Below, in pieces: positions 8,951 to 50,275 of a stretch of 64,000 nt of DNA. Origin of the DNA: a virus; IMG/VR virus record IMGVR_UViG_3300019776_000961, positions 129,221 to 193,220 of that record; one strand, 5' to 3'. Each line of letters opens with the position of its first letter. Positions within the stretch are counted from its first letter, which is position 1. Under the pieces are notes generated by a model that saw only the letters and a program-made list of their open reading frames with translations, was not told the origin of the DNA and made no database searches. The position numbers and the translations under genes are program-made.

Positions 8951-9601
8951 TTACTTCTTCATATTTGAAATGAAGTCATAGAATTCTGCGCGTGTCGCAG
9001 CATCGTTGAGGAAATCACCGCTCAACTTACTAGTCTTCATCTCACAACCATCGTGCTTTACACCGCGGAGACAAGCACAAGTATGTGTAGCACTCACCAT
9101 AACTGCAACCCCGTCATTCTGCTCACAAACATCATCAATTGCATTATGAATCTGAACCGTAAGGCCTTCCTGAATCTGAGGCCGGCGTGCGTAATGCTCT
9201 ACAATACGATTAAGCTTTGAGAGCCCGATAACACGTCCTTCCTTGGAGGGTATATATGCAACGTGTGCTACACCGGTGAAAGCTAGATGATGATGACTAC
9301 ACATTGACTTTACAGGTATACCGCCCTGGAATACCATTCCATCATAACCGTTACTTGGAAATGATGTAATCTTCGGTGGTACCTCATAACATCCAGCTGC
9401 AAGATCATTAACAAACGCCTTAGCAACTCTAAGCGGTGTACCAGTGCTATTAGGATCATCACGCCAATCAAAGCCGAGTGCATCCAGATATGCCTCATAA
9501 GCTTTAGCAGCTCTTTCAATTATTGATTGCTTTTCTTCAGTAGAGCGTGGGTGATTACCATTAGCTTCTTTAAGCTTAACTTCTTTAGTATATTCTTCCA
9601 T
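8951..9601 (-). CDS. folE: GTP cyclohydrolase I
   Basis: SMCSHHHLAF, GLSKLNR, RPQIQEGLT, HTCACLRGV. Start at MEEYTK. Confidence 0.95.
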   Translation of the reverse strand: MEEYTKEVKLKEANGNHPRSTEEKQSIIERAAKAYEAYLDALGFDWRDDPNSTGTPLRVAKAFVNDLAAGCYEVPPKITSFPSNGYDGMVFQGGIPVKSMCSHHHLAFTGVAHVAYIPSKEGRVIGLSKLNRIVEHYARRPQIQEGLTVQIHNAIDDVCEQNDGVAVMVSATHTCACLRGVKHDGCEMKTSKLSGDFLNDAATRAEFYDFISNMKK

Positions 9602-9655
9602 AGTTATACCTACTATAATAACCACATATTGCTGTAATTCAACATAAATATTTTA

Positions 9656-10998: not shown

Positions 10999-11673
10999 AT
11001 GAATTTTAAAAGTACTAAGATTATTGAATTAGGGAGTTGTGCATTTAGACAATTCGGAGCCAATCATAGTCATTGTCAGTATCTACATGGTTATCAGCTT
11101 AAAGCTAAATTTGTTTTTGGATCATCCTCATTAGATAGTAGAAACTGGGTTGTTGACTTCGGTGGTCTTAAGAAACTTAAAGAGACTTTACAAAATCAAT
11201 TCGATCATACACTTTGTATTGCAGCAAATGATCCATGTATTGATCTTTTTAAACAACTTGAAAATGCAGGAGCATGTGTTCTTCGTATCATGCCTGATGG
11301 TGTAGGTATAGAGAAGACAGCAGAATGGTGTTTTGAAGCAGCTTCATCATTTGTTACACAACACTACGGTGATCGTTGTTGGGTAGAATCAGTTGAAGTA
11401 TTTGAACATGAAGCAAATTCAGCTATTTACAGTAAACCAAAGGAAATAACTTATGCAAAAGCTGTTCATTCAGTTGACACACAAGATCTGCCAAATATTA
11501 CATCGACAAATAATGTTCAGGAACCGGAAGTTAAAACAGTGGCTGAAAATACTATATCATCTGCAGCAGGAATTGATTCAGGTAATATACACCGGCCAGA
11601 GGGTGTACCACTGAGAAATCCAGTTACATCAGGATGGGGTAACCCGTTTAAGGGAACAAGTTGGGGTGTGTAA
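10999..11673 (+). CDS. queD: 6-carboxy-tetrahydropterin synthase QueD-like, with C-terminal extension
   Basis: SHCQYLHGY, WVVDFGGLK, FDHTL, EHEANSA. Confidence 0.85.
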   Translation: MNFKSTKIIELGSCAFRQFGANHSHCQYLHGYQLKAKFVFGSSSLDSRNWVVDFGGLKKLKETLQNQFDHTLCIAANDPCIDLFKQLENAGACVLRIMPDGVGIEKTAEWCFEAASSFVTQHYGDRCWVESVEVFEHEANSAIYSKPKEITYAKAVHSVDTQDLPNITSTNNVQEPEVKTVAENTISSAAGIDSGNIHRPEGVPLRNPVTSGWGNPFKGTSWGV

Positions 11674-12929: not shown

Positions 12930-13694
12930 ATGAGTACTATTGATATTAATACAGAGAGTCTTTTTTTATCTGATGATAAAGTTTTTTATACTATAGAAGG
13001 GGAGGGTGAGTATGTAGGTAAGCCTTCTGTTTTTATGCGCATGTCAATGTGTAATTTAACATGCATTGGTTTTTCATCACCTGATTCACCAAACGGTTGT
13101 GACTCCTTTGTATCATGGTCAGTAAAGAATAAAATGACATTTGCAGAAATTTTTAAGCTTATGGAAGATAATAACTACGTTCAGCATCTTGCTGATGGAG
13201 CTATTCTCAAGCTTACAGGTGGTGAACCTCTCATTCAACAAAAACAACTTATTAAGTTTGTTAAAGCATTCATGCAGAAGTATGAGATTCTTCCTATTAT
13301 TGACTTCGAGACTAATGCTACATTAATGCCTGATCCAGAGTGGAGAGAGCTCTACGGTGCTACATTTACTACATCACCTAAGCTTCGTTCAAACGGTGAT
13401 CCTGAGGATAAAACATATAAACCAGAAGTCCTTAAGTGGCATTCAGAGAATAATTCAGGATTTAAATTTGTCATTAATTCAGATAAGGATATTGAAGAGA
13501 TTTGGGAGAAATACGTTAAAGATAAAAATGGTATTAATGTTAAGCTTAACCGTATTTGGTTTATGCCATGTTGCGGATCACGTCAAGAACATTCTGAGCG
13601 CTCGGCTGCAGTTGCTGAGTATGCAAAGGCACTTCATGTTAATTTTAGTCCGCGTCTTCAGCTTGTAATTTGGGATAAAGCACTAAAGGTATAA
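12930..13694 (+). CDS. queE: 7-carboxy-7-deazaguanine synthase (radical SAM)
   Basis: FYTIEGEG..VG.PSVFMR, CNLTC...CDS, LTGGEP, ETN, SPK, PRLQ. Confidence 0.9.
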   Translation: MSTIDINTESLFLSDDKVFYTIEGEGEYVGKPSVFMRMSMCNLTCIGFSSPDSPNGCDSFVSWSVKNKMTFAEIFKLMEDNNYVQHLADGAILKLTGGEPLIQQKQLIKFVKAFMQKYEILPIIDFETNATLMPDPEWRELYGATFTTSPKLRSNGDPEDKTYKPEVLKWHSENNSGFKFVINSDKDIEEIWEKYVKDKNGINVKLNRIWFMPCCGSRQEHSERSAAVAEYAKALHVNFSPRLQLVIWDKALKV

Positions 13695-31934: not shown

Positions 31935-33356
31935 ATGATTTATGAGGCTTTATATAAGCTGTATATAACTACCGCTCTTAAAAATGGTATAACAGATATC
32001 ATTAGTTACGAAGATTTTAAAAAAACTACCGCTGAGGTATATGAATTAACATATAAAAAATATTACCCTGATTTAGATTTAGAAAAATCGAACGTTGCTG
32101 ATTTTGAAGGTAAGACTGACGCAGAGACAATAATTCAGTACGTTGTAAGCCATCACTGTAATAAACTAAAAAAAGATAATAGCTTCTGCAGACCTCATAA
32201 GGAACAAATTGCACGTAAGCCATATTTTGCTGGAAAAAGATATGCGTGCATTGCTCCATACCGTACGCTGAGATTTGAATTTAACGGTAATATGACTGTT
32301 TGTTGTGCTAACAAATATCACGTTATCGGTACGTATCCAGAAAACTCACCAAAGGAAGCGTGGGAAGGCAATCAACTAGCAATGTTAAGACGAGCAGTTG
32401 CAAACTATGATTTTCATCTTGGTTGCCAGACATGCATGCATCAAATTTTAATTGGTAACGAAATGAATACGATGATGGAGGCTGCAAATAGCCAAGATGA
32501 GTTGCTTAATAGTAAGAAGGCATGCGTTCAAAGTGAAAAGAAGTATCCTGCAGAATTAACTTTTCAATTACAAAATAATTGTAACTATGAGTGTATAATG
32601 TGTTCAGGTGAGTACTCGTCATCAATATGTAAAAACAGAGATGGCAAGTTACCGCCACCTAGCGTGTATGATGACACATATATCGAGAAAATTACACCGT
32701 TTCTACAACATGCTGAAAGTTGTAATTTTCTAGGCGGTGAACCTTTCTTAATACCCATTTATTATAAAATGTGGGATATTATTCGTGATATAAATCCAAA
32801 TTGTGCTGTTAATATTACATCCAACGGCTCTATCTATACTAAGAGAATTGAAGATATGCTTTCAAATCTACCTAATGCAAGAATTATTATTTCACTCGAT
32901 TCTTTAGTACCAGAAACATATGCGTATATAAGACGTAGAGGTGATCTTAATGTAGTGTTGAATAATATTGAAAAGTTTCTGGCTACAAAAAAACTCACCT
33001 CCCTTGCAGTCTGCCCTATAATACAAAATGTTTATGAGATACCTAATTTTGTAAAGTTTTGTGCTAAAAGAAATATTAATATTTGGTTTAATAATGTTAC
33101 CGACATTATTAGTGATAATGATACCTATCATTATAAAGACCTTTACGAAAACGGTATAGCGGAAAATACTAATAAGGTAGTATATAACGAGGACCGTATT
33201 AATGAATTTAGGTTATGGACACTACCGCAAAAAGAAAAAATTAAAATCAAAAACGAATTATGTAGTCATTCGTATCCTCTTGAGTATCAAACAAAGGTTA
33301 CGAGTTTTATAAACTTTTTATTAAATTATTCACGTGATACCGCTCCAAAAGAATAG
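31935..33356 (+). CDS. Radical SAM protein with N-terminal SPASM/twitch-like Cys domain
   Basis: CIAPY...GNMTVCC...CQTC; NNCNYECIMC (CxxxCxxC); FLGGEPF; ITSNGS; ISLDS. Confidence 0.85.
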   Translation: MIYEALYKLYITTALKNGITDIISYEDFKKTTAEVYELTYKKYYPDLDLEKSNVADFEGKTDAETIIQYVVSHHCNKLKKDNSFCRPHKEQIARKPYFAGKRYACIAPYRTLRFEFNGNMTVCCANKYHVIGTYPENSPKEAWEGNQLAMLRRAVANYDFHLGCQTCMHQILIGNEMNTMMEAANSQDELLNSKKACVQSEKKYPAELTFQLQNNCNYECIMCSGEYSSSICKNRDGKLPPPSVYDDTYIEKITPFLQHAESCNFLGGEPFLIPIYYKMWDIIRDINPNCAVNITSNGSIYTKRIEDMLSNLPNARIIISLDSLVPETYAYIRRRGDLNVVLNNIEKFLATKKLTSLAVCPIIQNVYEIPNFVKFCAKRNINIWFNNVTDIISDNDTYHYKDLYENGIAENTNKVVYNEDRINEFRLWTLPQKEKIKIKNELCSHSYPLEYQTKVTSFINFLLNYSRDTAPKE

Positions 33357-38881: not shown

Positions 38882-38913
38882 AAAAAAAGAGGAGACTTTC
38901 GTCTCCTCTTTTT
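38882..38913. terminator. Bidirectional terminator between convergent genes
   Basis: AAAAAGAGGAGAC-TTTC-GTCTCCTCTTTTT. Confidence 0.85.
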
Positions 38914-38932: not shown

Positions 38933-39862
38933 TTACTGACCCATTGCTTTTAACGTATAATTTTGAACACTAATTAAACCGACAGGTAGCAGATCAGCTC
39001 TACTAGCGCGTACAGGATTAATGTCGAGCGAACCACGTCGTGAATAGAGTAGTGATACACAGCAATCCTCAACCTCAGGATGCTTCATAATACTTGTAAA
39101 GAGCTTCTCAGCACAGAACTCATGGAACTCGTTAACCTCACGCAAGGAGACAATCTCCTTAAAGAGTGACTCCGGATCTACAGCCATTCCATCCTTTGAG
39201 ATGATATGGATATAAGCAGCTCCTGTGTCCTTCTGCTTTGTATGACGGCAGCGTGAACGTAATGCGTTTGTAAAATACTTGCTTGATACCTTCTCACTAT
39301 CTTCAGGATGAAGTTTTGCAAACTTAATATGACTCTCCTTAGCATTATAGTCAGTAATATTGACTGTATTAGCTCTATCAAGAAGCTCCCAGAATAAATC
39401 CTTATAACCTTCAAGAGGAAAAGTAAGAGGCTGGGTATCAGCACCTGATGGGAAGAACTTTACATCAACAGGTGATCCAATACATGCAGTAAGATCGATA
39501 GCGATTTGCTTCTCGTAATTAGCGATAGCTTGTTTCACCGTTTCACCCATCTTACACATATCAAATGAATTCATATAAAGCTTGGCTGACTTTGACTCAA
39601 CCATGAACTCTGAATCAGCTTTATAGGTGTACTTGACTGTACCCGCTACAGGATACCCATTATTAAGAAGGAATGTAGCTTCATGACAGTGCCATGTATC
39701 ATAACCAAGAAACTCGCCACCAGTAATACCCCAATCCTTACGAGCAAGCTCACGAGGCATAGGGTTGAGAAGTGAAGGGTCAAATTGCTCGGTATAGACG
39801 GCATATGAAGCTGAAGACCCGAGCGTCTTCGATGCAATATCAGTTAGTGTAGTTGTGAACAT
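38933..39862 (-). CDS. queF: NADPH-dependent preQ0 reductase (two-domain, E. coli type)
   Basis: LG...Y...DPSLL.P.PR, ESKSAKLYMNSF, LRSRCRHTKQKDTG, EFHEFCAE, YSRRGSLDINP.R. Confidence 0.9.
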   Translation of the reverse strand: MFTTTLTDIASKTLGSSASYAVYTEQFDPSLLNPMPRELARKDWGITGGEFLGYDTWHCHEATFLLNNGYPVAGTVKYTYKADSEFMVESKSAKLYMNSFDMCKMGETVKQAIANYEKQIAIDLTACIGSPVDVKFFPSGADTQPLTFPLEGYKDLFWELLDRANTVNITDYNAKESHIKFAKLHPEDSEKVSSKYFTNALRSRCRHTKQKDTGAAYIHIISKDGMAVDPESLFKEIVSLREVNEFHEFCAEKLFTSIMKHPEVEDCCVSLLYSRRGSLDINPVRASRADLLPVGLISVQNYTLKAMGQ

Positions 39863-40413
39863 AAAATCATTTTAATCTGTTCCATTCGTTGTTCAACTGT
39901 TCCTTTTACTCGAACAACTTTATTATGTAGAACACTTCCGTAAGTAGCTCCGCTCATTACTTCTTCAAATATCTCAATCATCTTATTTCTAAATTCAACA
40001 TCGATACTTCTCTCACCATCATCCACTAACTCAACGTCATAAGGATCAGGGTATATAATGTAATCGAGCTTATCAATGAGTTCACCATATACACCTTTTG
40101 CATAATCAAATACCCATTTAGATACTTTACCTTCTAAGTGTAAATACCCTGTATAACACAGTCCATCAAGAATACAGCGATCTAAGATCAAACCCTGTTT
40201 CTCGTGCGATATAAGACTATTCTCAATATGTTTATTAATGATTAAGCACTGAGTAATATTACTACCAGCCTCGTTAATCGGAACATTGAATTCCCTCTTT
40301 ACAAGTCTAGTTACTTCGTCAACAAAAGTAAATTGATCACTATAAAGCTCTTTACAAGCTTTCAATAGAGTCGTCTTACCTGTACACTGTGCTCCTGTAA
40401 AACTTACAATCAT
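39844..40413 (-). CDS. P-loop nucleotide kinase-like (AAA_28)
   Basis: FTGAQCTGKTT, ILDRCILDG, LVDDGERS. Confidence 0.75.
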   Translation of the reverse strand: MIVSFTGAQCTGKTTLLKACKELYSDQFTFVDEVTRLVKREFNVPINEAGSNITQCLIINKHIENSLISHEKQGLILDRCILDGLCYTGYLHLEGKVSKWVFDYAKGVYGELIDKLDYIIYPDPYDVELVDDGERSIDVEFRNKMIEIFEEVMSGATYGSVLHNKVVRVKGTVEQRMEQIKMILCSQLH

Positions 40414-40429
40414 TTAATGAGTATAATTA

Positions 40430-40777
40430 CTACTTCGCCCACTTGCCACGATGAACAATCTCAGCAATTATGCTGTATACAGCTGCGTCAAGGAATGCAT
40501 CAAATACTGATTCATTGGCAGACTCTAGACTATTCTTTCTTAGGACAAGATTAATGAGACGCTGCAACTTGTCATTCAAACGGACAACAATTGCTGAAAT
40601 AGATGCCTTGCGTTCCTCCTGAGTGTTGAGGGAGGAGCCAAGCGAGATGTTACCAGGACCGTAATCAAACTGCTTCTTACAAAAAGTAGCATAATGATCA
40701 GCCTGAATCTTTTTGAATTCAGCACATGTTTCTGGATACTGTGTTTCGATTGTTTGGATTATTTCTTCAATTGACAT
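40430..40777 (-). CDS. DUF1599 / nucleotide-modification-associated domain 1 (Nmad1)
   Basis: F.KKQFDYG..N, VRLNDKLQRL.NL, ESVFDAFLDAAVYSII. Confidence 0.8.
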   Translation of the reverse strand: MSIEEIIQTIETQYPETCAEFKKIQADHYATFCKKQFDYGPGNISLGSSLNTQEERKASISAIVVRLNDKLQRLINLVLRKNSLESANESVFDAFLDAAVYSIIAEIVHRGKWAK

Positions 40778-41312
40778 AATTTTTTAAAAGATCTCTCCAG
40801 AGGAGAATTGCTGCACTCTTAAGACGTGCGTTAAAATGTTGAAAGTTTGTTCTTGGGTTCTCTAACGGAAAACTTGCAATAATCTCGCCTTCATCAACCT
40901 CCGGTGATACTCTGTGTAATACACACCCCACAACATCATGGTCTGCATTAAATGCTCTAATCTGTGGATCTTTACCTTTCAGTTCTGGATGCTCTGTAAT
41001 TAAGCCAGGGTGTAAATTATAAATTTCATATTTTTCACATACTGATTTTGGAATTATACGCAGGTAACCATGTAAAGTGACAATAGGATTCTCATACTGA
41101 CTAAGAATGTCATGATAAACATTCTCATCAGGCTTAATATCAGTTTGAATAAGCTTACATCCTTTCTTTATGATTTCATTCATAAAGTAATCAATATCAG
41201 AAAGGTCTTGTTTATTTGTTACAATACAGTCTGGCTGAGTATTAAAATACATACAGAGATTTGCAATCTCTGATCCAGTTTGTGAAAAAAATGTAATCCA
41301 GGACCTCTTCAT
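40767..41312 (-). CDS. dpdN: PurN-like formyltransferase, probable dPreQ1 formyltransferase
   Basis: FFSQTGS, LHGYLRII, YNLHPG, HRVSPEVDEG (PurN Asn/His/Asp positions); context between queF and a DpdA-like gene. Confidence 0.7.
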   Translation of the reverse strand: MKRSWITFFSQTGSEIANLCMYFNTQPDCIVTNKQDLSDIDYFMNEIIKKGCKLIQTDIKPDENVYHDILSQYENPIVTLHGYLRIIPKSVCEKYEIYNLHPGLITEHPELKGKDPQIRAFNADHDVVGCVLHRVSPEVDEGEIIASFPLENPRTNFQHFNARLKSAAILLWRDLLKNYVN

Positions 41313-42127
41313 CGACGAATAGTCTTTTTAAACATTGATGTATTATAGTTTACTGTCTCAAGCTGATCAACGCTAAATTCATATTCAATTAAATCTGCTA
41401 GCTTTGTCGATGGCTTAAACGGCAAACCATAATCAGCATCATACTTTAAATTGTGAATAGCTGCAACAATTGGATTGCTCGTATCACAGCTTACAATGTT
41501 ATGAATATTATTATCGACATAATAACGGAACTCTCTTGCAAGAGAACAACCAAGAAGGTGATGCGGTTTATCCCATCTCCAAGCACCGTATTCAATCAAT
41601 TGACTAATAAACCGCTGACGACCGGAGCACCATCTCTCAAGAGAAGTCTTACCCTCACCTGTAATTTCATAGTAAGAGAAGTCGAAACTTATAGCAATCA
41701 TATCTGCTGAATCTGCCATAAACATATAGCATGCAAGAAGATCATTCCACGTCTTACCCTGAACTGCACCAATTGCCTTTGTTATACAATGTTGCTTAAC
41801 TTGATCAATCTTACCAGTCTCAACCCAATTACTAAAGCTTGTAACAGTACCAACAGTGTCCTCGAGAACATCAGGTACTATAAACATATTTGGCTTAAGA
41901 TCAACAGCCTCAGCTAAGAATTTATCAGAATCAAAAGAGTGTCCAAGTTCAAAGATTGAGTTGTCAAGAAGCACTTCCCTATTATAGATCTCTCGTGAAG
42001 CTTTGAAGAAGTTTTTATATGTTGGATATTTCTCGAATAAATGTACGAGTGCGTAATCGAAATCATTATAACTACGTGAGCTTTCTAGAATAGAAATAGG
42101 AGATTCATGAGAGACTTTCATTAGCAT
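41309..42127 (-). CDS. dpdA: TGT-superfamily DNA guanine transglycosylase (DpdA-like)
   Basis: LLDNS.FE, IVPDV, AVQG, HHLLG, SCDTSNP align with the TGT/DpdA motif order; operon with queF. Confidence 0.75.
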   Translation of the reverse strand: MLMKVSHESPISILESSRSYNDFDYALVHLFEKYPTYKNFFKASREIYNREVLLDNSIFELGHSFDSDKFLAEAVDLKPNMFIVPDVLEDTVGTVTSFSNWVETGKIDQVKQHCITKAIGAVQGKTWNDLLACYMFMADSADMIAISFDFSYYEITGEGKTSLERWCSGRQRFISQLIEYGAWRWDKPHHLLGCSLAREFRYYVDNNIHNIVSCDTSNPIVAAIHNLKYDADYGLPFKPSTKLADLIEYEFSVDQLETVNYNTSMFKKTIRR

Positions 42128-42163
42128 ATCTAAAATATAAATGTAAATAATAATAAATCAACT

Positions 42164-45100
42164 ATGGAATATCCGACATATTATGGAAATTATATGGGTA
42201 TCGTTGTACAGAACAACGATCCATTGCGCCAGGGTAGAGTAAAGGTATTTGTTCCACACATTACACCAACCGTGTATAGTGGGTGGACCGATCAACTCGG
42301 TAATGATGGTGATATAGCCTTTAAGTTTCTTGGTCAGAACGTCTTTAGTGATATTGATGCTAAAGTTCTTGAGAGTATTAAGAAGGTACTACCTTGGGCA
42401 AGCGTTGCTATGCCAATTGCTGGTGAAGTAGCATCCGGACGCTACCATAGTAGTGATGATTTTGGTACAACAAGTGATTCGAGTAATGTTGATGAACTAC
42501 AAATTAAGGAAACAAATAAAAACCAAACAGGCGCTAACCCTGATGGTACAGGAGATAAACCTGGTAATCTTTTTGATCAGAATGCATTCATGCTTAGTGA
42601 TGCATTTAATAATCCTGCTGATACCAACGTTAATAACGTTAATAAGTTAAGTTATAACTATAAGCCCGAGACATACAGTAATAAAGCAAAAGGTGCATTT
42701 GCTATACCAAGAGTCGGTGCTCACGTTTGGGTATTTTTTACTGAAGGTGATCCTCTCAAACCTGTTGTGTTTGCCGCAGCATTCGGTGCGAGTGATTGGG
42801 CTGGTATCTATGATGTACATTCAGATGATCTTGGTCAGGATTATCCAGGTGAATATGAAAATTTTAAAAATAAAACAAACAATGGTGCGTATAATATCAA
42901 TACCGAGACGTATAGAAACAAATACGTTATAAATCAAAAGGGAGGTACTCTATCGTTTGTTAATACTGATCAGCGCGAACTTCTCAAGCTTACACATTTT
43001 TCAGGATCTTTTAAGGAATTTAATAATCAGGCAAATATTGAACTTGCCGTTAACAATGATCAAAAATTAGTTCTTGGTGATTCATTCTCTACTGTACGCG
43101 GTACACGTAATGAATATTCACAGATGGACTATGACTGCGTGGTAGCAGGTGATAGTTATAGAAAAGTTGGTGACCCAGGTCGTGTCTTTTTATACGAACA
43201 GTGGAAGCAGAAAATGAATGATATAGCTGATACCAAACAATTGTTTGATATTCAGAGATGTGATGCAGTAAACGATAAACTAAATACTAAGCTTCTTAAA
43301 ATAAACTCTACCAAACAAAAGAAAGCTGGTGTGCCTGCTTTGTGTCCTGTATGTACAGATATTGATACATACAATAGATCTATTGCTGCAAATAATTTGT
43401 TTACCGATGTAACAGGTACTTTTGGCTACAAAGTTTCAGTTAGTACAAGTGATAATAATACCGGTTCAACAGGCGCAGGTGGCGGAACAGAGACATCCGG
43501 AGGCATATTACCTGTACATCAACTCGATGCAGCAGGTCATCCGTTGGATGGCCAAGCACTCTACGGTTGGACAATGACGCCGAGAGGTGTACTAATTAAT
43601 AGTACTGGAGCTATTGTAGATAATGGATTCAAGCCATTAGTGCGTGTACCCGGGTTCATGCCCAACACTGTTCCTAAAGAAAAATGTCCATTATGTCTCG
43701 GACCATATGGTAAGCTACCTGGATTTAGTCCAAGCTCTTTCGGTGGCGTTTGGGTACCAGATCCTGAAAAAATTGCATTACCTTTACAGTACGCAAGAAT
43801 CATACCTGAGCTAGCAAAAATAGAAGCAGCAATGGGCAAAGGAGGTACAGAAGTAATTGAAATAGAAAAGAATAAGATTGAGACTATCGGCCTTGTAATG
43901 AACGACTGGGGTGCTATACGTGTCGATATGTTCGGTAAGTGTGAACCAGCTCAAGTTCAGGTTCATGAGACACACACTGCAATGGTTCAATGTCCAACAC
44001 CCCTTGTAGAAGTTGTACAGGTTGATGATCTACCTGGTGGTACGTATACCTTAAACGTTGCAAATAGATATAGTCTTCTTGTTGGTGCAGGTGGTATGAA
44101 CATGAAATCATACGGTGTTGTAAACATCTCCGGTGCCATGACAAACATTACAGGTGAACAAGTCAATATTGGTAGTGCACTTGAAGTAACGATTGATGGC
44201 GGTAAGAGACTTGCACTTGTTGCTGACGTATTAACACTTACTCAGCGTGATAAAGATCAAGTTCTCGTTGACAGTGATCTTGGTGTTACTGGTAAGACAG
44301 TTATAAGAGGCTCACTATTCGTTGAGGGCCCTATCTTCTACAGTGAAGCTCACACTGTCGGTGCATTACACGCCACACTACCTCACCAACACTCTGGTAG
44401 CGCTGCTCCTGGTACACCTGAGACAGGAAAAGTAACCCCAATGGGTACTGCAATAACAAGTGATACAGCTCATTTTGATGAAGTGACAGGTACACCTAGT
44501 ATTGGTTCCGCTGGTGTTGATATAGGAGCTGATCCATTAACACCAGTATATATGGGCTACGGTGATACAGGTCGTGCCGTTGGTTGTTTACCGGAGGATT
44601 TATTTATTGGTGTAGCACCAACTGGAACTACGTATAATGCTACTATTCACTCTATTACTAACCCATTCCTTAACGGTTCCTGTACCATAGAAATCACATC
44701 ACCTGTACCTGTGGTTGCAAAGCCTAACGTAATGCACGTTCAAACACAGTATACACCTACAACAGTAACAGCACCTGTCTTAAGTCTAACAGAGCTCGAC
44801 ATACAGCTTAGATCCATAGGTGACGAAATAGGTATCGTCACAGCAATTGGTACTAATATTAAAGGCGCATATATACCTGGTGCAGGTTATGGTGATATAG
44901 ATACACAGTTAAATCTCCCTCTTCGCGGTCTACCAAAGATTCCAAGAGAAAAATTAATAAAAGAAATGGCAGTAAAACAATCAGCCCTTAACGCGCCCAT
45001 TGTATGTGTAGGTGATGGTGGTCATTATGATGCTATTACAATGGCACCAACCAAGTATTCATTCCTTGGCAGCAATACAAAGCTTGCTACTACTGTACAA

Positions 45101-45199
45101 GATCATAGAGCTGATTATATACGCGGTCTTGGTCAGCTGCAGGGTTCTAATGCTGCATTCAGTAACAATAGTAATGTTACTGAATCATCGTTCACCTAA
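42164..45199 (+). CDS. gp5: Baseplate hub/spike gp5-like (OB-fold N-terminus, beta-helix repeats)
   Basis: YYGNYMGIVVQNNDP..QGRVKV..P, LPWA, IPRVGAHVWVFF..GDP..PV, H.SGSF.E; no lysozyme motif recognised. Confidence 0.75.
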   Translation: MEYPTYYGNYMGIVVQNNDPLRQGRVKVFVPHITPTVYSGWTDQLGNDGDIAFKFLGQNVFSDIDAKVLESIKKVLPWASVAMPIAGEVASGRYHSSDDFGTTSDSSNVDELQIKETNKNQTGANPDGTGDKPGNLFDQNAFMLSDAFNNPADTNVNNVNKLSYNYKPETYSNKAKGAFAIPRVGAHVWVFFTEGDPLKPVVFAAAFGASDWAGIYDVHSDDLGQDYPGEYENFKNKTNNGAYNINTETYRNKYVINQKGGTLSFVNTDQRELLKLTHFSGSFKEFNNQANIELAVNNDQKLVLGDSFSTVRGTRNEYSQMDYDCVVAGDSYRKVGDPGRVFLYEQWKQKMNDIADTKQLFDIQRCDAVNDKLNTKLLKINSTKQKKAGVPALCPVCTDIDTYNRSIAANNLFTDVTGTFGYKVSVSTSDNNTGSTGAGGGTETSGGILPVHQLDAAGHPLDGQALYGWTMTPRGVLINSTGAIVDNGFKPLVRVPGFMPNTVPKEKCPLCLGPYGKLPGFSPSSFGGVWVPDPEKIALPLQYARIIPELAKIEAAMGKGGTEVIEIEKNKIETIGLVMNDWGAIRVDMFGKCEPAQVQVHETHTAMVQCPTPLVEVVQVDDLPGGTYTLNVANRYSLLVGAGGMNMKSYGVVNISGAMTNITGEQVNIGSALEVTIDGGKRLALVADVLTLTQRDKDQVLVDSDLGVTGKTVIRGSLFVEGPIFYSEAHTVGALHATLPHQHSGSAAPGTPETGKVTPMGTAITSDTAHFDEVTGTPSIGSAGVDIGADPLTPVYMGYGDTGRAVGCLPEDLFIGVAPTGTTYNATIHSITNPFLNGSCTIEITSPVPVVAKPNVMHVQTQYTPTTVTAPVLSLTELDIQLRSIGDEIGIVTAIGTNIKGAYIPGAGYGDIDTQLNLPLRGLPKIPREKLIKEMAVKQSALNAPIVCVGDGGHYDAITMAPTKYSFLGSNTKLATTVQDHRADYIRGLGQLQGSNAAFSNNSNVTESSFT

Positions 45200-46152
45200 A
45201 CAGACTGAGTAAAGTATTTTACTTTACGTAGATCTTCTAGCTTTGTACCTCCTGCATAACTAATAGCGCTTTGCAGATCTTCTTGTATTTCTTGCATTTT
45301 TTGAAGATATGTCATTGTATCAGCTTCTATTAACTCTCGTTTTCCTTCAATGTTCTTATTGTGACCCTTATTGTAGAAGCTAGCTGATCCGTAGTATTCC
45401 TTTAATGTCTCACCAGTATGAGGGTCCTTAAATGTAGCTGATGGACTATCAGCGAGTTTTGCAAACATACTTCCTGCCATAACCATTGATGCACCTGCAA
45501 CAATTGCCTTAGCTATATCACCGTTACAACGAATACCACCATCGGCGATAATAGGTATATGAACAGGCATCTTATTAATACATGAAAACATCGGCATTGT
45601 AAAACCTGTTTTATCTTTTGTTGTACAAACATACCCCTGACCAATACCTACCTTCACAACGTCAGCACCCCATTTAATTAAATCATATGCTGCTTCATTA
45701 GTTACAATATTACCAGCGATAATTTTTGTCCCGTTATCGCGAAACTTTTGTAAATGAGCTAGCGTATCCTTCATCTTCTTGTGGTGACCATGAGCAATGT
45801 CAACGGTAATAAAATCAACTCTATGTCCAGAGTTGTATAACTCTTGTAGTATTTTTATATCACTATCATTTACACCTACGCTAATTGACACAAGCCTCCA
45901 GCCCTCATAATTAGCAATTCTTACGAGTTCAACAGTATCAACATCAAAGCGATGCATGATGTAAAAATAACCATTATTAGATAGCGTGCGAGCGGTATTA
46001 ATATTAATAGTACACTTCATATTTGAAGGTACAACAGGTACGTTAAATTCAAAACCTGCGAGTTCTGTGGTTGTATTAGCGAGTGATCTTGAATCAAGAT
46101 CGGAATAACTGGGTACTAAAACAACGTCTTTATAATGTAGTGCTTGCATCAC
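45196..46152 (-). CDS. guaC: GMP reductase
   Basis: VPVVPSNM, MHRF, VDIAHGH, AGNIVT, KVGIGQGYVCTT, ADGGIR..GDIAKA, EYYGSAS, DLQSAISYAG. Confidence 0.9.
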   Translation of the reverse strand: MMQALHYKDVVLVPSYSDLDSRSLANTTTELAGFEFNVPVVPSNMKCTININTARTLSNNGYFYIMHRFDVDTVELVRIANYEGWRLVSISVGVNDSDIKILQELYNSGHRVDFITVDIAHGHHKKMKDTLAHLQKFRDNGTKIIAGNIVTNEAAYDLIKWGADVVKVGIGQGYVCTTKDKTGFTMPMFSCINKMPVHIPIIADGGIRCNGDIAKAIVAGASMVMAGSMFAKLADSPSATFKDPHTGETLKEYYGSASFYNKGHNKNIEGKRELIEADTMTYLQKMQEIQEDLQSAISYAGGTKLEDLRKVKYFTQSV

Positions 46153-46165
46153 TACTAATAGTAGA

Positions 46166-46372
46166 TTACTGGTTCTTCTTTTTCAAGTAATCTTTTTTGT
46201 GGTACAACATCCAGTCGAGTAATGCCTTCTCCCAACCTACATCTCTACCTGCTTTTTCTGACAAATACCACTTATTTTCCTCTATCTGTTTCTTCTCCTC
46301 TCTGTATTTCTTAAAGAGGAGTGTATTTTCAAGAGGAAATTTCTCCATAAAAATATTTATGGTTCCGGCCAT
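46166..46372 (-). CDS. DUF4032-like small protein
   Basis: IEENKWYLSEKAGRDVGWEKALLDW. Confidence 0.65.
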   Translation of the reverse strand: MAGTINIFMEKFPLENTLLFKKYREEKKQIEENKWYLSEKAGRDVGWEKALLDWMLYHKKDYLKKKNQ

Positions 46373-46779
46373 ATGTATTCTAAATTTGTAGGAACCTCAG
46401 GCCAAATATGCTTATAAAATTCAGGCTTCTTTTGTATAAGCATCGATTTGTGCGATATATGCAAATCAGTATTACCTAACCAACCTGGCATACTATTCGT
46501 ATCTCTCACATCATAATGTGCTTTAATTTTCTCTAAGCATGTGTCCTTATATCCCCTCGCTCTCCATGCAAGACAAATTTGCACACCATATTCAACCAAA
46601 GCGTTAGGTGTCTTGCTCCACATCTTCGTACAGGGATGATTAGACCAACCCCTGCCTTTTGACAAACCACGAATTTTATTAAGCATTTGTAAAACTTCCA
46701 CTCGCTGCTTACCTAGGCGCTTTTGATCTAATACCTCGCCTGATTTATAAAAATCGTTATACGGAAGAAATGTTTGCAT
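46357..46779 (-). CDS. Pyrimidine-dimer DNA glycosylase-like (MSMEG_6728/DenV-related)
   Basis: MQTFLPY, LD.KRLGKQRVE..Q, HPC.KMW, W..RGY.DT, SH.S.L..K.P..Y. Confidence 0.8.
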   Translation of the reverse strand: MQTFLPYNDFYKSGEVLDQKRLGKQRVEVLQMLNKIRGLSKGRGWSNHPCTKMWSKTPNALVEYGVQICLAWRARGYKDTCLEKIKAHYDVRDTNSMPGWLGNTDLHISHKSMLIQKKPEFYKHIWPEVPTNLEYIWPEP

Positions 46780-49617: not shown

Positions 49618-49825
49618 AGAGCTTCTCGAAGGTTATAATGTATCGGGAAGAACTGGAGCACCTCCAGTGCCTGGTGATGCTGGTGATACGCGACAGTTAG
49701 GTGGAGCAGGCGGTACAGGCTATATAGGCAATACTCTTGAAACTATCACCATTGATGATAGACTTCTTAACAAGAAGAAGAGATTGAAATTACGACGTAA
49801 CAAGATTCGCAAGAGAGTCAGTTAA
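49595..49825 (+). CDS. Small hypothetical protein with leader
   Basis: MQFEATVKELLEG, Gly/Pro-rich middle, basic tail. Confidence 0.5.
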   Translation: MQFEATVKELLEGYNVSGRTGAPPVPGDAGDTRQLGGAGGTGYIGNTLETITIDDRLLNKKKRLKLRRNKIRKRVS

Positions 49826-50275
49826 ATTATCCCAAGGAAATTCTAACCATACACTACTGTCGAATATATCAACAAAGTGATCTGGTAACAAAGCTGTACC
49901 ATTCTTCACGTAGAGAGTACAAAATTGGGGGTGTATTTTATAACCAGCTAAATACCTTTTAATAAAAGCGAGTGTTGTGCCCTTATCAGAAAGATCATCA
50001 ACCACAAGTATATTCATATTTTTACTTGCTGCAAGAAAGTCACTATCAGGGTATTGATGTACGACGATATTATTCTGTGTTTTGTCATCACTATAACTTT
50101 GTATAGCGAAGTTCACGACCGTCTTTACGTTTAAATGATACGCAAGAAGTGCACCGGGTATACATCCACCACGACTTACTGTTATAATAGCGTCAATATC
50201 CTTTAATTGCTTAGAAAGCAATAATGTATCGGTAATTATTTTACCCCAAGAAATAACGGTCTTTTCGCTAGACAT
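49790..50275 (-). CDS. Type I phosphoribosyltransferase (purine salvage-like)
   Basis: VSRGG.IPG, ILVVDDLSDKGTTL, WLEFPWD; TATAAT 6 nt before ATG. Confidence 0.88.
   Translation of the reverse strand: MSSEKTVISWGKIITDTLLLSKQLKDIDAIITVSRGGCIPGALLAYHLNVKTVVNFAIQSYSDDKTQNNIVVHQYPDSDFLAASKNMNILVVDDLSDKGTTLAFIKRYLAGYKIHPQFCTLYVKNGTALLPDHFVDIFDSSVWLEFPWDNLTDSLANLVTS

Follow-up and report, generated by a model that had tools for sequence, protein, structure and literature searches.

The final 64 kb of the 193-kb IMG/VR virus record IMGVR_UViG_3300019776_000961 (positions 129,221 to 193,220; estimated completeness of the record 88%), a stretch here called the window, carries on its minus strand a five-gene operon, at 38933-42127. 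Together with the FolE, QueD, QueE and QueC genes of the same phage, this operon is predicted to make preQ1 and to replace the guanine of virion DNA with 7-(formylamino)methyl-7-deazaguanine (fdPreQ1), or with a very close derivative. The operon represents a variation on a system already known, with an Nmad1 protein, a GMP reductase and a phosphoribosyltransferase (PRTase) as additions. The replacement, we suggest, most likely takes place in the nucleotide pool, that is, prior to replication, and to this reading as a whole we give a probability of about 0.5. The conserved partners of the cassette thereby raise a specific challenge to the published mechanism, which is one of base exchange in DNA.

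An earlier note on this DNA had described five co-directional, tightly packed genes, and the listing of open reading frames (ORFs) gives exactly five on the minus strand between these limits. In order of reading these are a DpdA3-family 7-deazaguanine transglycosylase of the TGT superfamily (protein A, 272 amino acids, 41309..42127), recognized by homology to proteins of phages immuto_2-6A and CP220; a DpdN-type, i.e., PurN-like, formyltransferase with a Formyl_trans_N domain (protein B, 181 amino acids, 40767..41312); a four-helix DUF1599/Nmad1 protein, placed by homologs and fold, which is a candidate dGTP pyrophosphatase (protein C, 115 amino acids, 40430..40777); a P-loop nucleoside or nucleotide kinase of AAA_28, NadR-RNK-like type (protein D, 189 amino acids, 39844..40413); and a bimodular QueF, the preQ0 to preQ1 reductase, with QueF_N and QueF domains (protein E, 309 amino acids, 38933..39862). 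All five assignments of the earlier note hold, that of Nmad1, however, only by transitive and fold evidence, as its direct match is sub-threshold. Successive genes overlap by 4, 11 and 19 nt or, in one case, are separated by a 16-nt gap. A bidirectional intrinsic terminator hairpin (38884..38913; 13-bp stem, T runs on both strands) stands between QueF, the last gene, and a convergent gene, and a sigma-70-like promoter site (minus strand, 42134..42161; TTGATT-16-TATATT, a consensus match only) precedes the first. Given tight junctions, terminator and promoter site, the layout looks like that of a single operon, and as its gene order is found again in dozens of independent viral contigs, that order is not due to chance.

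The closest characterized system is that of Flavobacterium phage immuto_2-6A, in the DNA of which fdPreQ1 replaces every G, at 345,000 per 10^6 nt (PMC10516641). The two have in common the order DpdA3-DpdN-kinase-QueF, with immuto reading in full DpdA3, a 50-amino-acid ORF, DpdN, a ‘thymidylate kinase’ and QueF, and with identities of 44% for DpdA3, 45% for DpdN, 31% for the kinase and 38% for QueF. Alike, too, both genomes hold a full preQ0 pathway plus a PRTase. They differ in that DUF1599/Nmad1 separates DpdN from the kinase in the window and is missing there in immuto, which has instead, at two genes upstream of DpdA3, a PRA-PH (MazG-like) ‘hydrolase’; in that a GMP reductase is near the operon in the window, with none in the 18-kb immuto region examined; and in that the window's phage is T4-like and its polymerase of family B, that of immuto, next to the cassette, being of family A. 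Because parts and order are those of immuto, and because fdPreQ1 has been measured there at complete G replacement, the fdPreQ1-type prediction, which the earlier note had already made, is well founded, with the window's phage on that count a new member of this known system. By blastn the operon has no match among cultured phages.

Protein A is, by similarity to founding members, a member of the DpdA3 subfamily, as that subfamily was defined on the immuto_2-6A and CP220 proteins (PMC10516641). In tblastn it is 44% identical to gp206 of immuto, an annotated ‘DNA guanine transglycosylase’, and 47-48% identical to gp056 of Campylobacter Firehammervirus CP220, with the identities spanning 92-94% of protein A at E-values of 3e-54 to 5e-54. 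Searched directly, protein A has no sequence match in Pfam, NCBIfam or the PDB. A profile of 75 diverse DpdA3 homologs matches only one PDB entry, Salmonella DpdA 7UI4 (E 0.15), in the HLLG...D-x-S-x-P region, and hhalign with E. coli TGT gives E 0.0023, with the GxVQG and KPxxLxG motifs lining up. Among those homologs D55, E60, D86, R170, H190, G193, D215, S217 and P219 are invariant, and the motifs LDNSxFE, GxVQG, HLLG (H190-L-L-G193) and D-T-S-x-P (D215-P219) are invariant or nearly so; conserved zinc-site cysteines are not found among the invariant columns. By ESM features protein A lies beside clusters named queuine tRNA-ribosyltransferase or DpdA. TGT-superfamily motifs thus appear to be present in DpdA3, as judged from statistics which are weak but congruent. 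The single-sequence AlphaFold2 (AF2) model, at a mean predicted confidence (pLDDT) of 36, is too poor to use for fold.

Fusions of DpdA3 with DpdN exist, with no DpdA3-kinase fusion seen among the 150 best representatives. Other fused DpdA3 homologs (P0382, P0274, P0261 and P0300; 344-586 amino acids) exist as well, the types being DpdA3 with DUF3310, DpdA3 with a NUMOD3 (homing-endonuclease-like) tail, and DpdA3 with a 317-amino-acid N-terminal extension that has no Pfam match.

Protein B matches Formyl_trans_N (PF00551) with E 3e-11, at 43.6 bits against a cut-off of 26.1, is 45% identical to immuto DpdN (YP_010114479) over 98% of the protein, and has glycinamide ribonucleotide (GAR) transformylases as its top PDB matches. 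The N-x-H...D catalytic triad is intact, with NLHP and EVDEG aligning to N106, H108 and D144 of PurN, and 122 homologs conserve both this triad and a SQTGSE loop that lines up with the phosphate loop of PurN. DpdN is, in addition, co-encoded with DpdA and with the pathway genes from FolE through QueF. As a separate observation, DpdN is conserved far less than are its neighbours, being 42-50% identical in related loci (L009-L049) in which DpdA3 is 70-84%, Nmad1 85-94% and QueF 71-92% identical, with only one locus (L008) possessing a 98%-identical DpdN copy. This suggests that the formyltransferase either evolves fast or has undergone allele replacement.

QueF passes both Pfam cut-offs (QueF_N, E 2e-23; QueF, E 2e-9) and scores 178 bits with TIGR03138, which is under the NCBIfam equivalog cut-off of 293. 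It carries the QueF motif and catalytic cysteine (ESKSAKLY, C205 and EFHE). Upstream in the pathway are FolE, i.e., GTP cyclohydrolase I (8951..9625, minus strand; PF01227, E 2e-47), a QueD-like PTPS protein (10999..11673, plus strand; PF01242, E 7e-14) and a probable QueE-like radical SAM protein (12930..13694, plus strand), the latter matching Fer4_12 only, at E 3e-5, and being assigned from context. At 7 kb ahead of the window is QueC. The tRNA queuosine pathway, too, uses QueF and the preQ0 genes, and the cassette could in principle modify tRNA instead of DNA. The phage record encodes no canonical TGT, however, the homologous cassettes of immuto and CP220 give fully modified DNA, and the formyltransferase, the kinase and the candidate pyrophosphatase of the cassette are not needed for tRNA modification, such that we consider a tRNA role to be extremely unlikely.

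Three scans of IMG/VR provided 179 viral loci, whose DpdA3 homologs are 38-99% identical and whose neighbouring genes were clustered and searched with hidden Markov models (HMMs); scans with single proteins from distant representatives gave at most one locus. Frequencies were counted over the 133 loci with at least 3.5 kb downstream: QueF is present in 127, the kinase in 122, DpdN in 106, Nmad1 in 45 and GMP reductase in 21. Four architectures are the commonest, namely A-DpdN-kinase-QueF (21 loci), A-DpdN-Nmad1-kinase-QueF, which is the window's form (19 loci), a minimal A-kinase-QueF (16 loci), and A-DpdN-GMPreductase-Nmad1-kinase-QueF (16 loci), where A is DpdA3. In the minimal form DpdA3 and kinase abut or overlap. 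From these frequencies and architectures the core cassette is DpdA3-kinase-QueF. Two related loci (L031:8810-10393 and L039:2662-5585) have genes of 425-527 amino acids inserted between DpdA3 and DpdN.

The kinase follows DpdA3 in 92-94% of the loci with sufficient flank (122/133 and 102/108), it is next to DpdA3 in both CP220 and immuto, and among cultured phages full-length homologs of it are found only in DpdA3 carriers, where they are invariably adjacent to DpdA3. CP220 resembles the window in this, i.e., DpdA3 (47-48%) is followed directly by the same kinase family (32-35%), and its G is completely replaced, with dADG as product and with QueF and DpdN both absent. Protein D itself matches AAA_28 at full length, from profile position 2 to the last, 164 (E 8e-14; 52.6 bits, cut-off 27), has a Walker A and a DDGxR lid motif, and aligns with the NadR ribosylnicotinamide kinase 6gye across the domain, the DDGxR motif included. 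Its profile also finds thymidylate kinases, NadR and a deoxynucleoside kinase in the PDB, at E 0.002-0.01, and it matches phrog_2107, ‘thymidylate kinase’. Membership of the thymidylate kinase family is nevertheless not supported, there being no PF02223 match and the PDB profile matches being weak (E 0.002-0.01) and covering in part only the N-terminal half; ‘thymidylate kinase’ labels in database records are automatic.

A second P-loop ORF of the phage (L192:1474-2031, plus strand, genome positions 2003-2560; 185 amino acids) was considered as a general deoxynucleoside monophosphate (dNMP) kinase and rejected, as it is unrelated to the operon kinase and weakly matches polynucleotide-kinase and ATPase PHROGs, and hence does not supply that activity. 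With its GLSGAGKT Walker A motif and its FTGIDSPYE motif it presumably resembles an adenylylsulfate (APS) kinase.

Protein C occupies a position which other phages fill differently. Its own match to DUF1599 (PF07659) is at 14.4 bits against a cut-off of 25 (E 0.009), and in hmmscan at E 0.01 no DUF1599/Nmad1 match is returned. Homologs that do match PF07659, however, are 51-55% identical to it (E 1e-28 to 1e-30), and by ESM features 27 of 30 matches are in DUF1599 clusters (score 0.96). The AF2 model consists of four helices (pLDDT 89) and matches many viral ‘Nmad1’ models of BFVD, the best at E 4e-7 and a TM-score of 0.85. Sequence searches of the PDB were discarded, as these gave nothing or only spurious leucine-rich repeat matches.

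In clades without Nmad1 the ORF that comes between DpdN and kinase encodes a PF18909 ‘dATP/dGTP diphosphohydrolase’ (E 1e-20), in immuto and 23 other loci a PRA-PH hydrolase lies two genes upstream of DpdA3, and in CP220, unlike the window, a fusion of an HD-phosphohydrolase with an AAA_33 kinase stands in Nmad1's place, i.e., directly upstream (-1) of DpdA3. Over the 108 well-flanked loci Nmad1 is present in 49, PRA-PH in 18 and PF18909 in 7, with two types together in none. Such mutual exclusivity of occupants suggests that different proteins may serve one function, and both of the recognizable alternatives, PF18909 and PRA-PH, belong to families annotated as nucleoside-triphosphate pyrophosphatases. 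As the source phage record has no MazG, HD, PRA-PH or PF18909 gene, Nmad1 is the sole candidate there for the pyrophosphatase slot.

By the mechanism that we propose, Nmad1 (in other clades a PF18909, PRA-PH or HD hydrolase) would cleave dGTP, which would remove the canonical nucleotide and at the same time supply dGMP or dG. DpdA3, as a minimal TGT-type base exchanger, would put preQ1 in place of the guanine in this free deoxynucleotide or deoxynucleoside, with DpdN formylating the aminomethyl group using 10-formyl-tetrahydrofolate as donor. The modified deoxynucleoside or monophosphate, which would be no substrate for host kinases, would then be phosphorylated by the AAA_28 kinase, following which host nucleoside diphosphate kinase (NDK) would form the triphosphate and the phage family-B polymerase would incorporate it. 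The PRTase and GMP reductase would recycle the released guanine. Homology supplies the parts list and the link to immuto, and each of these pool-level steps is inferred, by us, from the linkage of the genes, from the 100% replacement seen in three DpdA3 phages, from the failure of DpdA3 when acting alone, and from analogy to two known pathways. Further points in favour of the pool are the DpdA3-DpdN fusions, the GMP reductase found within the cassette of relatives, and the ADG nucleoside of CP220-infected cells. That DpdA3 is not a DNA transglycosylase but instead the first base exchanger of the TGT superfamily to act on a free deoxynucleotide or deoxynucleoside, forming a pre-replicative pathway with Nmad1 and the kinase, is a specific claim that we advance tentatively, as one that could readily prove either right or wrong.

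The first of those analogies is to phage T4, in which the hydroxymethylcytosine pathway consists of gp56, a dCTPase, gp42, the dCMP hydroxymethylase, and gp1, a dNMP kinase, and yields 100% replacement. There, as may be the case here, a pyrophosphatase and a monophosphate-level modifier are accompanied by a dedicated kinase. The likeness is one of analogy only, since a pyrimidine is the base modified there and the proteins are of unrelated families. The second is to the Z-genome (2-aminoadenine) pathway of cyanophage S-2L (MazZ, DatZ, PurZ), in which a dNTP diphosphohydrolase gives dGMP, a dNTPase removes the canonical nucleotide, and the base-converting enzyme acts on a monophosphate prior to replication (PMC8342488). 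This is the same logic as in the route proposed here, and PF18909 proteins of sister cassettes are named ‘dATP/dGTP diphosphohydrolase’. It differs in that PurZ is adenylosuccinate-synthetase-like whereas DpdA3 is a TGT-like exchanger, and in that the target base is another one; the likening of Nmad1 to MazZ is one of analogy.

The earlier note had held that the published pathway leaves the kinase and Nmad1 unexplained, and this is borne out, as PMC10516641 never mentions a kinase and gives no role to kinase or hydrolase. Among the papers searched, likewise, no proposal was found of a kinase or of a pre-replicative route for DpdA3 phages. The extra nucleotide-level step that the note had conjectured gains in strength, while still being conjecture, given a kinase that is a near-universal DpdA3 neighbour and an Nmad1 slot that elsewhere holds dNTP pyrophosphatases.

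Several points weigh against synthesis in the pool. To our knowledge, no TGT-superfamily enzyme acts on free nucleotides. The kinase's substrate cannot be read from its sequence, which resembles, and weakly, both the NadR nucleoside kinase and thymidylate kinase. The links of Nmad1 in fold and profile to all-alpha NTP pyrophosphatases are not significant, making its pyrophosphatase role a putative one: the fold matches to 2p06 (AF_0060; Z 6.0, 83 residues), 1yvw (HisE; Z 5.9) and 2q73 (iMazG) are within helical-bundle noise (Foldseek, VIA-align, PDB), and hhalign of Nmad1 with the PF18909 set (E 0.095, with a common YGxxN[IW]xxG motif) and with the PRA-PH set (E 0.5) does not reach significance, such that equivalence of position is shown and relatedness is not. 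These fold matches and the shared motif are only hints. Further, 28 of the 108 loci have no pyrophosphatase inside the flanks covered, and gene neighbourhood as such cannot separate helpers that shape the pool from obligatory steps of a pathway. Those who defined DpdA3, lastly, treat it as a DNA transglycosylase and all 7-deazaguanine modifications as post-replicative (PMC10516641).

DpdA3 acts, in that published model, as a DNA transglycosylase of high efficiency, converting G to preQ1 (or to formyl-preQ1) in newly replicated DNA, with the kinase, Nmad1, GMP reductase and PRTase as general pool helpers merely travelling with the cassette, where they might lower dGTP, feed GTP to FolE or salvage released guanine. 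Consistent with it are the conserved TGT-type motifs, including a putative nucleophile Asp in D-x-S-x-P, and the sole PDB match of the DpdA3 profile, which is to a DNA-acting DpdA; all characterized TGT and DpdA enzymes, so far as we are aware, act on polymers. The bDpdA, DpdA1 and DpdA2 enzymes (e.g., Salmonella DpdA 7UI4) have those motifs in common with DpdA3. They are, however, 380-440 amino acids long, as compared with the approximately 270 of DpdA3, have no link to a kinase, and act after replication on 0.1-30% of G, in many cases at fixed motifs (PMC10516641). That is, other DpdA subfamilies modify at most ~30% of G, whereas G was completely replaced in each of the three DpdA3 phages tested, and in E. 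coli DpdA3 by itself did not modify DNA (PMC10516641). In the same study ADG nucleoside was found in cytoplasm from CP220-infected cells (PMC10516641). Were dGTP to be incorporated first, moreover, there would be little sense in a dedicated enzyme that cleaves it, and translational coupling of the kinase to DpdA3 extends across phage lineages that are very distant. On balance we see exchange in newly replicated DNA as the main rival and as a fair possibility, though less likely than synthesis in the pool.

A different pre-replicative path is suggested by the small PRTase of the window (49790..50275, minus strand, 161 amino acids; Pribosyltran, E 7e-11; phrog_8995), a possible salvage enzyme for guanine or preQ base. 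Such an enzyme could join preQ0 or preQ1 base to phosphoribosyl pyrophosphate (PRPP), giving a ribonucleotide in the manner of ToyH in toyocamycin biosynthesis, with the kinase then forming the diphosphate, the phage ribonucleotide reductase (RNR) plus NDK the dNTP, and DpdA3 clearing residual G in DNA. McCarty and Bandarian are said to have provided the toyocamycin precedent in 2008. A PRTase gene is found also in the immuto cluster (gp211), a PRTase-like family is near DpdA3 in 16 other loci, and the RNR large subunit is encoded in the genome. The PRTase is, however, much less constant than are DpdA3 and the kinase, being near in ~13/106 well-flanked loci, and this path would leave the universal DpdA3 without a main role and the dGTP-type pyrophosphatases unexplained. 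It strikes us as improbable.

The GMP reductase homolog, of GuaC type (45196..46152, minus strand, 318 amino acids; IMPDH/GMPR domain, E 3e-57), bears on the identity of the final base. This accessory gene of the cassette lies 3 kb from the operon here, is within the cassette in many relatives, and is placed between DpdN and Nmad1 in 21-28 related loci; as noted, it was not seen in the immuto region. ToyE is a precedent for a GMP reductase homolog acting on a 7-deazaguanine nucleotide, and a like activity in this clade would strip the 2-amino group, leaving a 7-substituted 7-deazahypoxanthine in DNA. The protein nonetheless comes near to the GMP reductase equivalog (PRK05458, 323 bits against a cut-off of 344; TIGR01306, 279 against 466), is 41-45% identical to GuaC-type genes of phages that have no deazaguanine genes at all, and is not universal in the clade, with guanine recycling a simpler explanation. 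We therefore regard a different final base as quite improbable. The earlier note had offered a further modification as an alternative role for the kinase and Nmad1; that role is not supported for either protein and could now apply solely to this GMP reductase.

DNA containing fdPreQ1 is known from a single cultured phage group. At least 541 IMG/VR stretches carry the DpdA3 cassette, and the DpdA3 protein family comprises, at 50% identity, 1263 clusters, such that full replacement of guanine is probably a common trait of aquatic T4-like phages. Should the base indeed be made in the pool, then an orphan kinase family and DUF1599/Nmad1 would acquire functions, in the latter case its first, and the failure of DpdA3 in heterologous tests would be explained. 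The accepted mechanism would also change for the most efficient class of deazaguanine system, and a compact set of enzymes would be at hand for producing 7-deazaguanine dNTPs and fully substituted, restriction-resistant DNA.

The source is an uncultured T4-like myovirus. The window encodes a T4-type portal, a prohead protease, a gp23-type capsid protein and a baseplate hub, and directly upstream of it are a family-B DNA polymerase, a RecA/UvsX-like protein, a DnaB-like helicase and gp32; G+C is ~35-40%. At the head of the operon (region 42125-42165) a 36-nt spacer separates the divergent start codons of DpdA3 and of a 1011-amino-acid baseplate gene on the plus strand, which TATAAATG, T4 late-promoter-like, precedes. 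The -10 box of the sigma-70-like site ends 6 nt ahead of the DpdA3 ATG, and as this leaves no room for a Shine-Dalgarno site, the DpdA3 mRNA may be leaderless.

Two to three genes from QueC are a stand-alone class-II glutamine amidotransferase (GATase; L004:10495-11190, genome positions 119715-120410) and a glycosyltransferase (L004:9818-10498, genome positions 119038-119718), both on the minus strand, and a GATase (cluster 28) is again present downstream of the cassette at other loci. In phage 9g Gat-QueC fusions make archaeosine-type bases, and given that precedent one may conceive of a different branch, or of a side product that is amidated. Just past the GMP reductase is a 140-amino-acid MSMEG_6728-family protein (46357-46779, minus strand; NF038085, 165 bits, over the cut-off). 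Among the head genes, i.e., between portal-proximal genes and the prohead protease, there is, lastly, a twitch/SPASM-domain radical SAM protein of 473 amino acids (31935-33356, plus strand; NF033640, E 4e-40).

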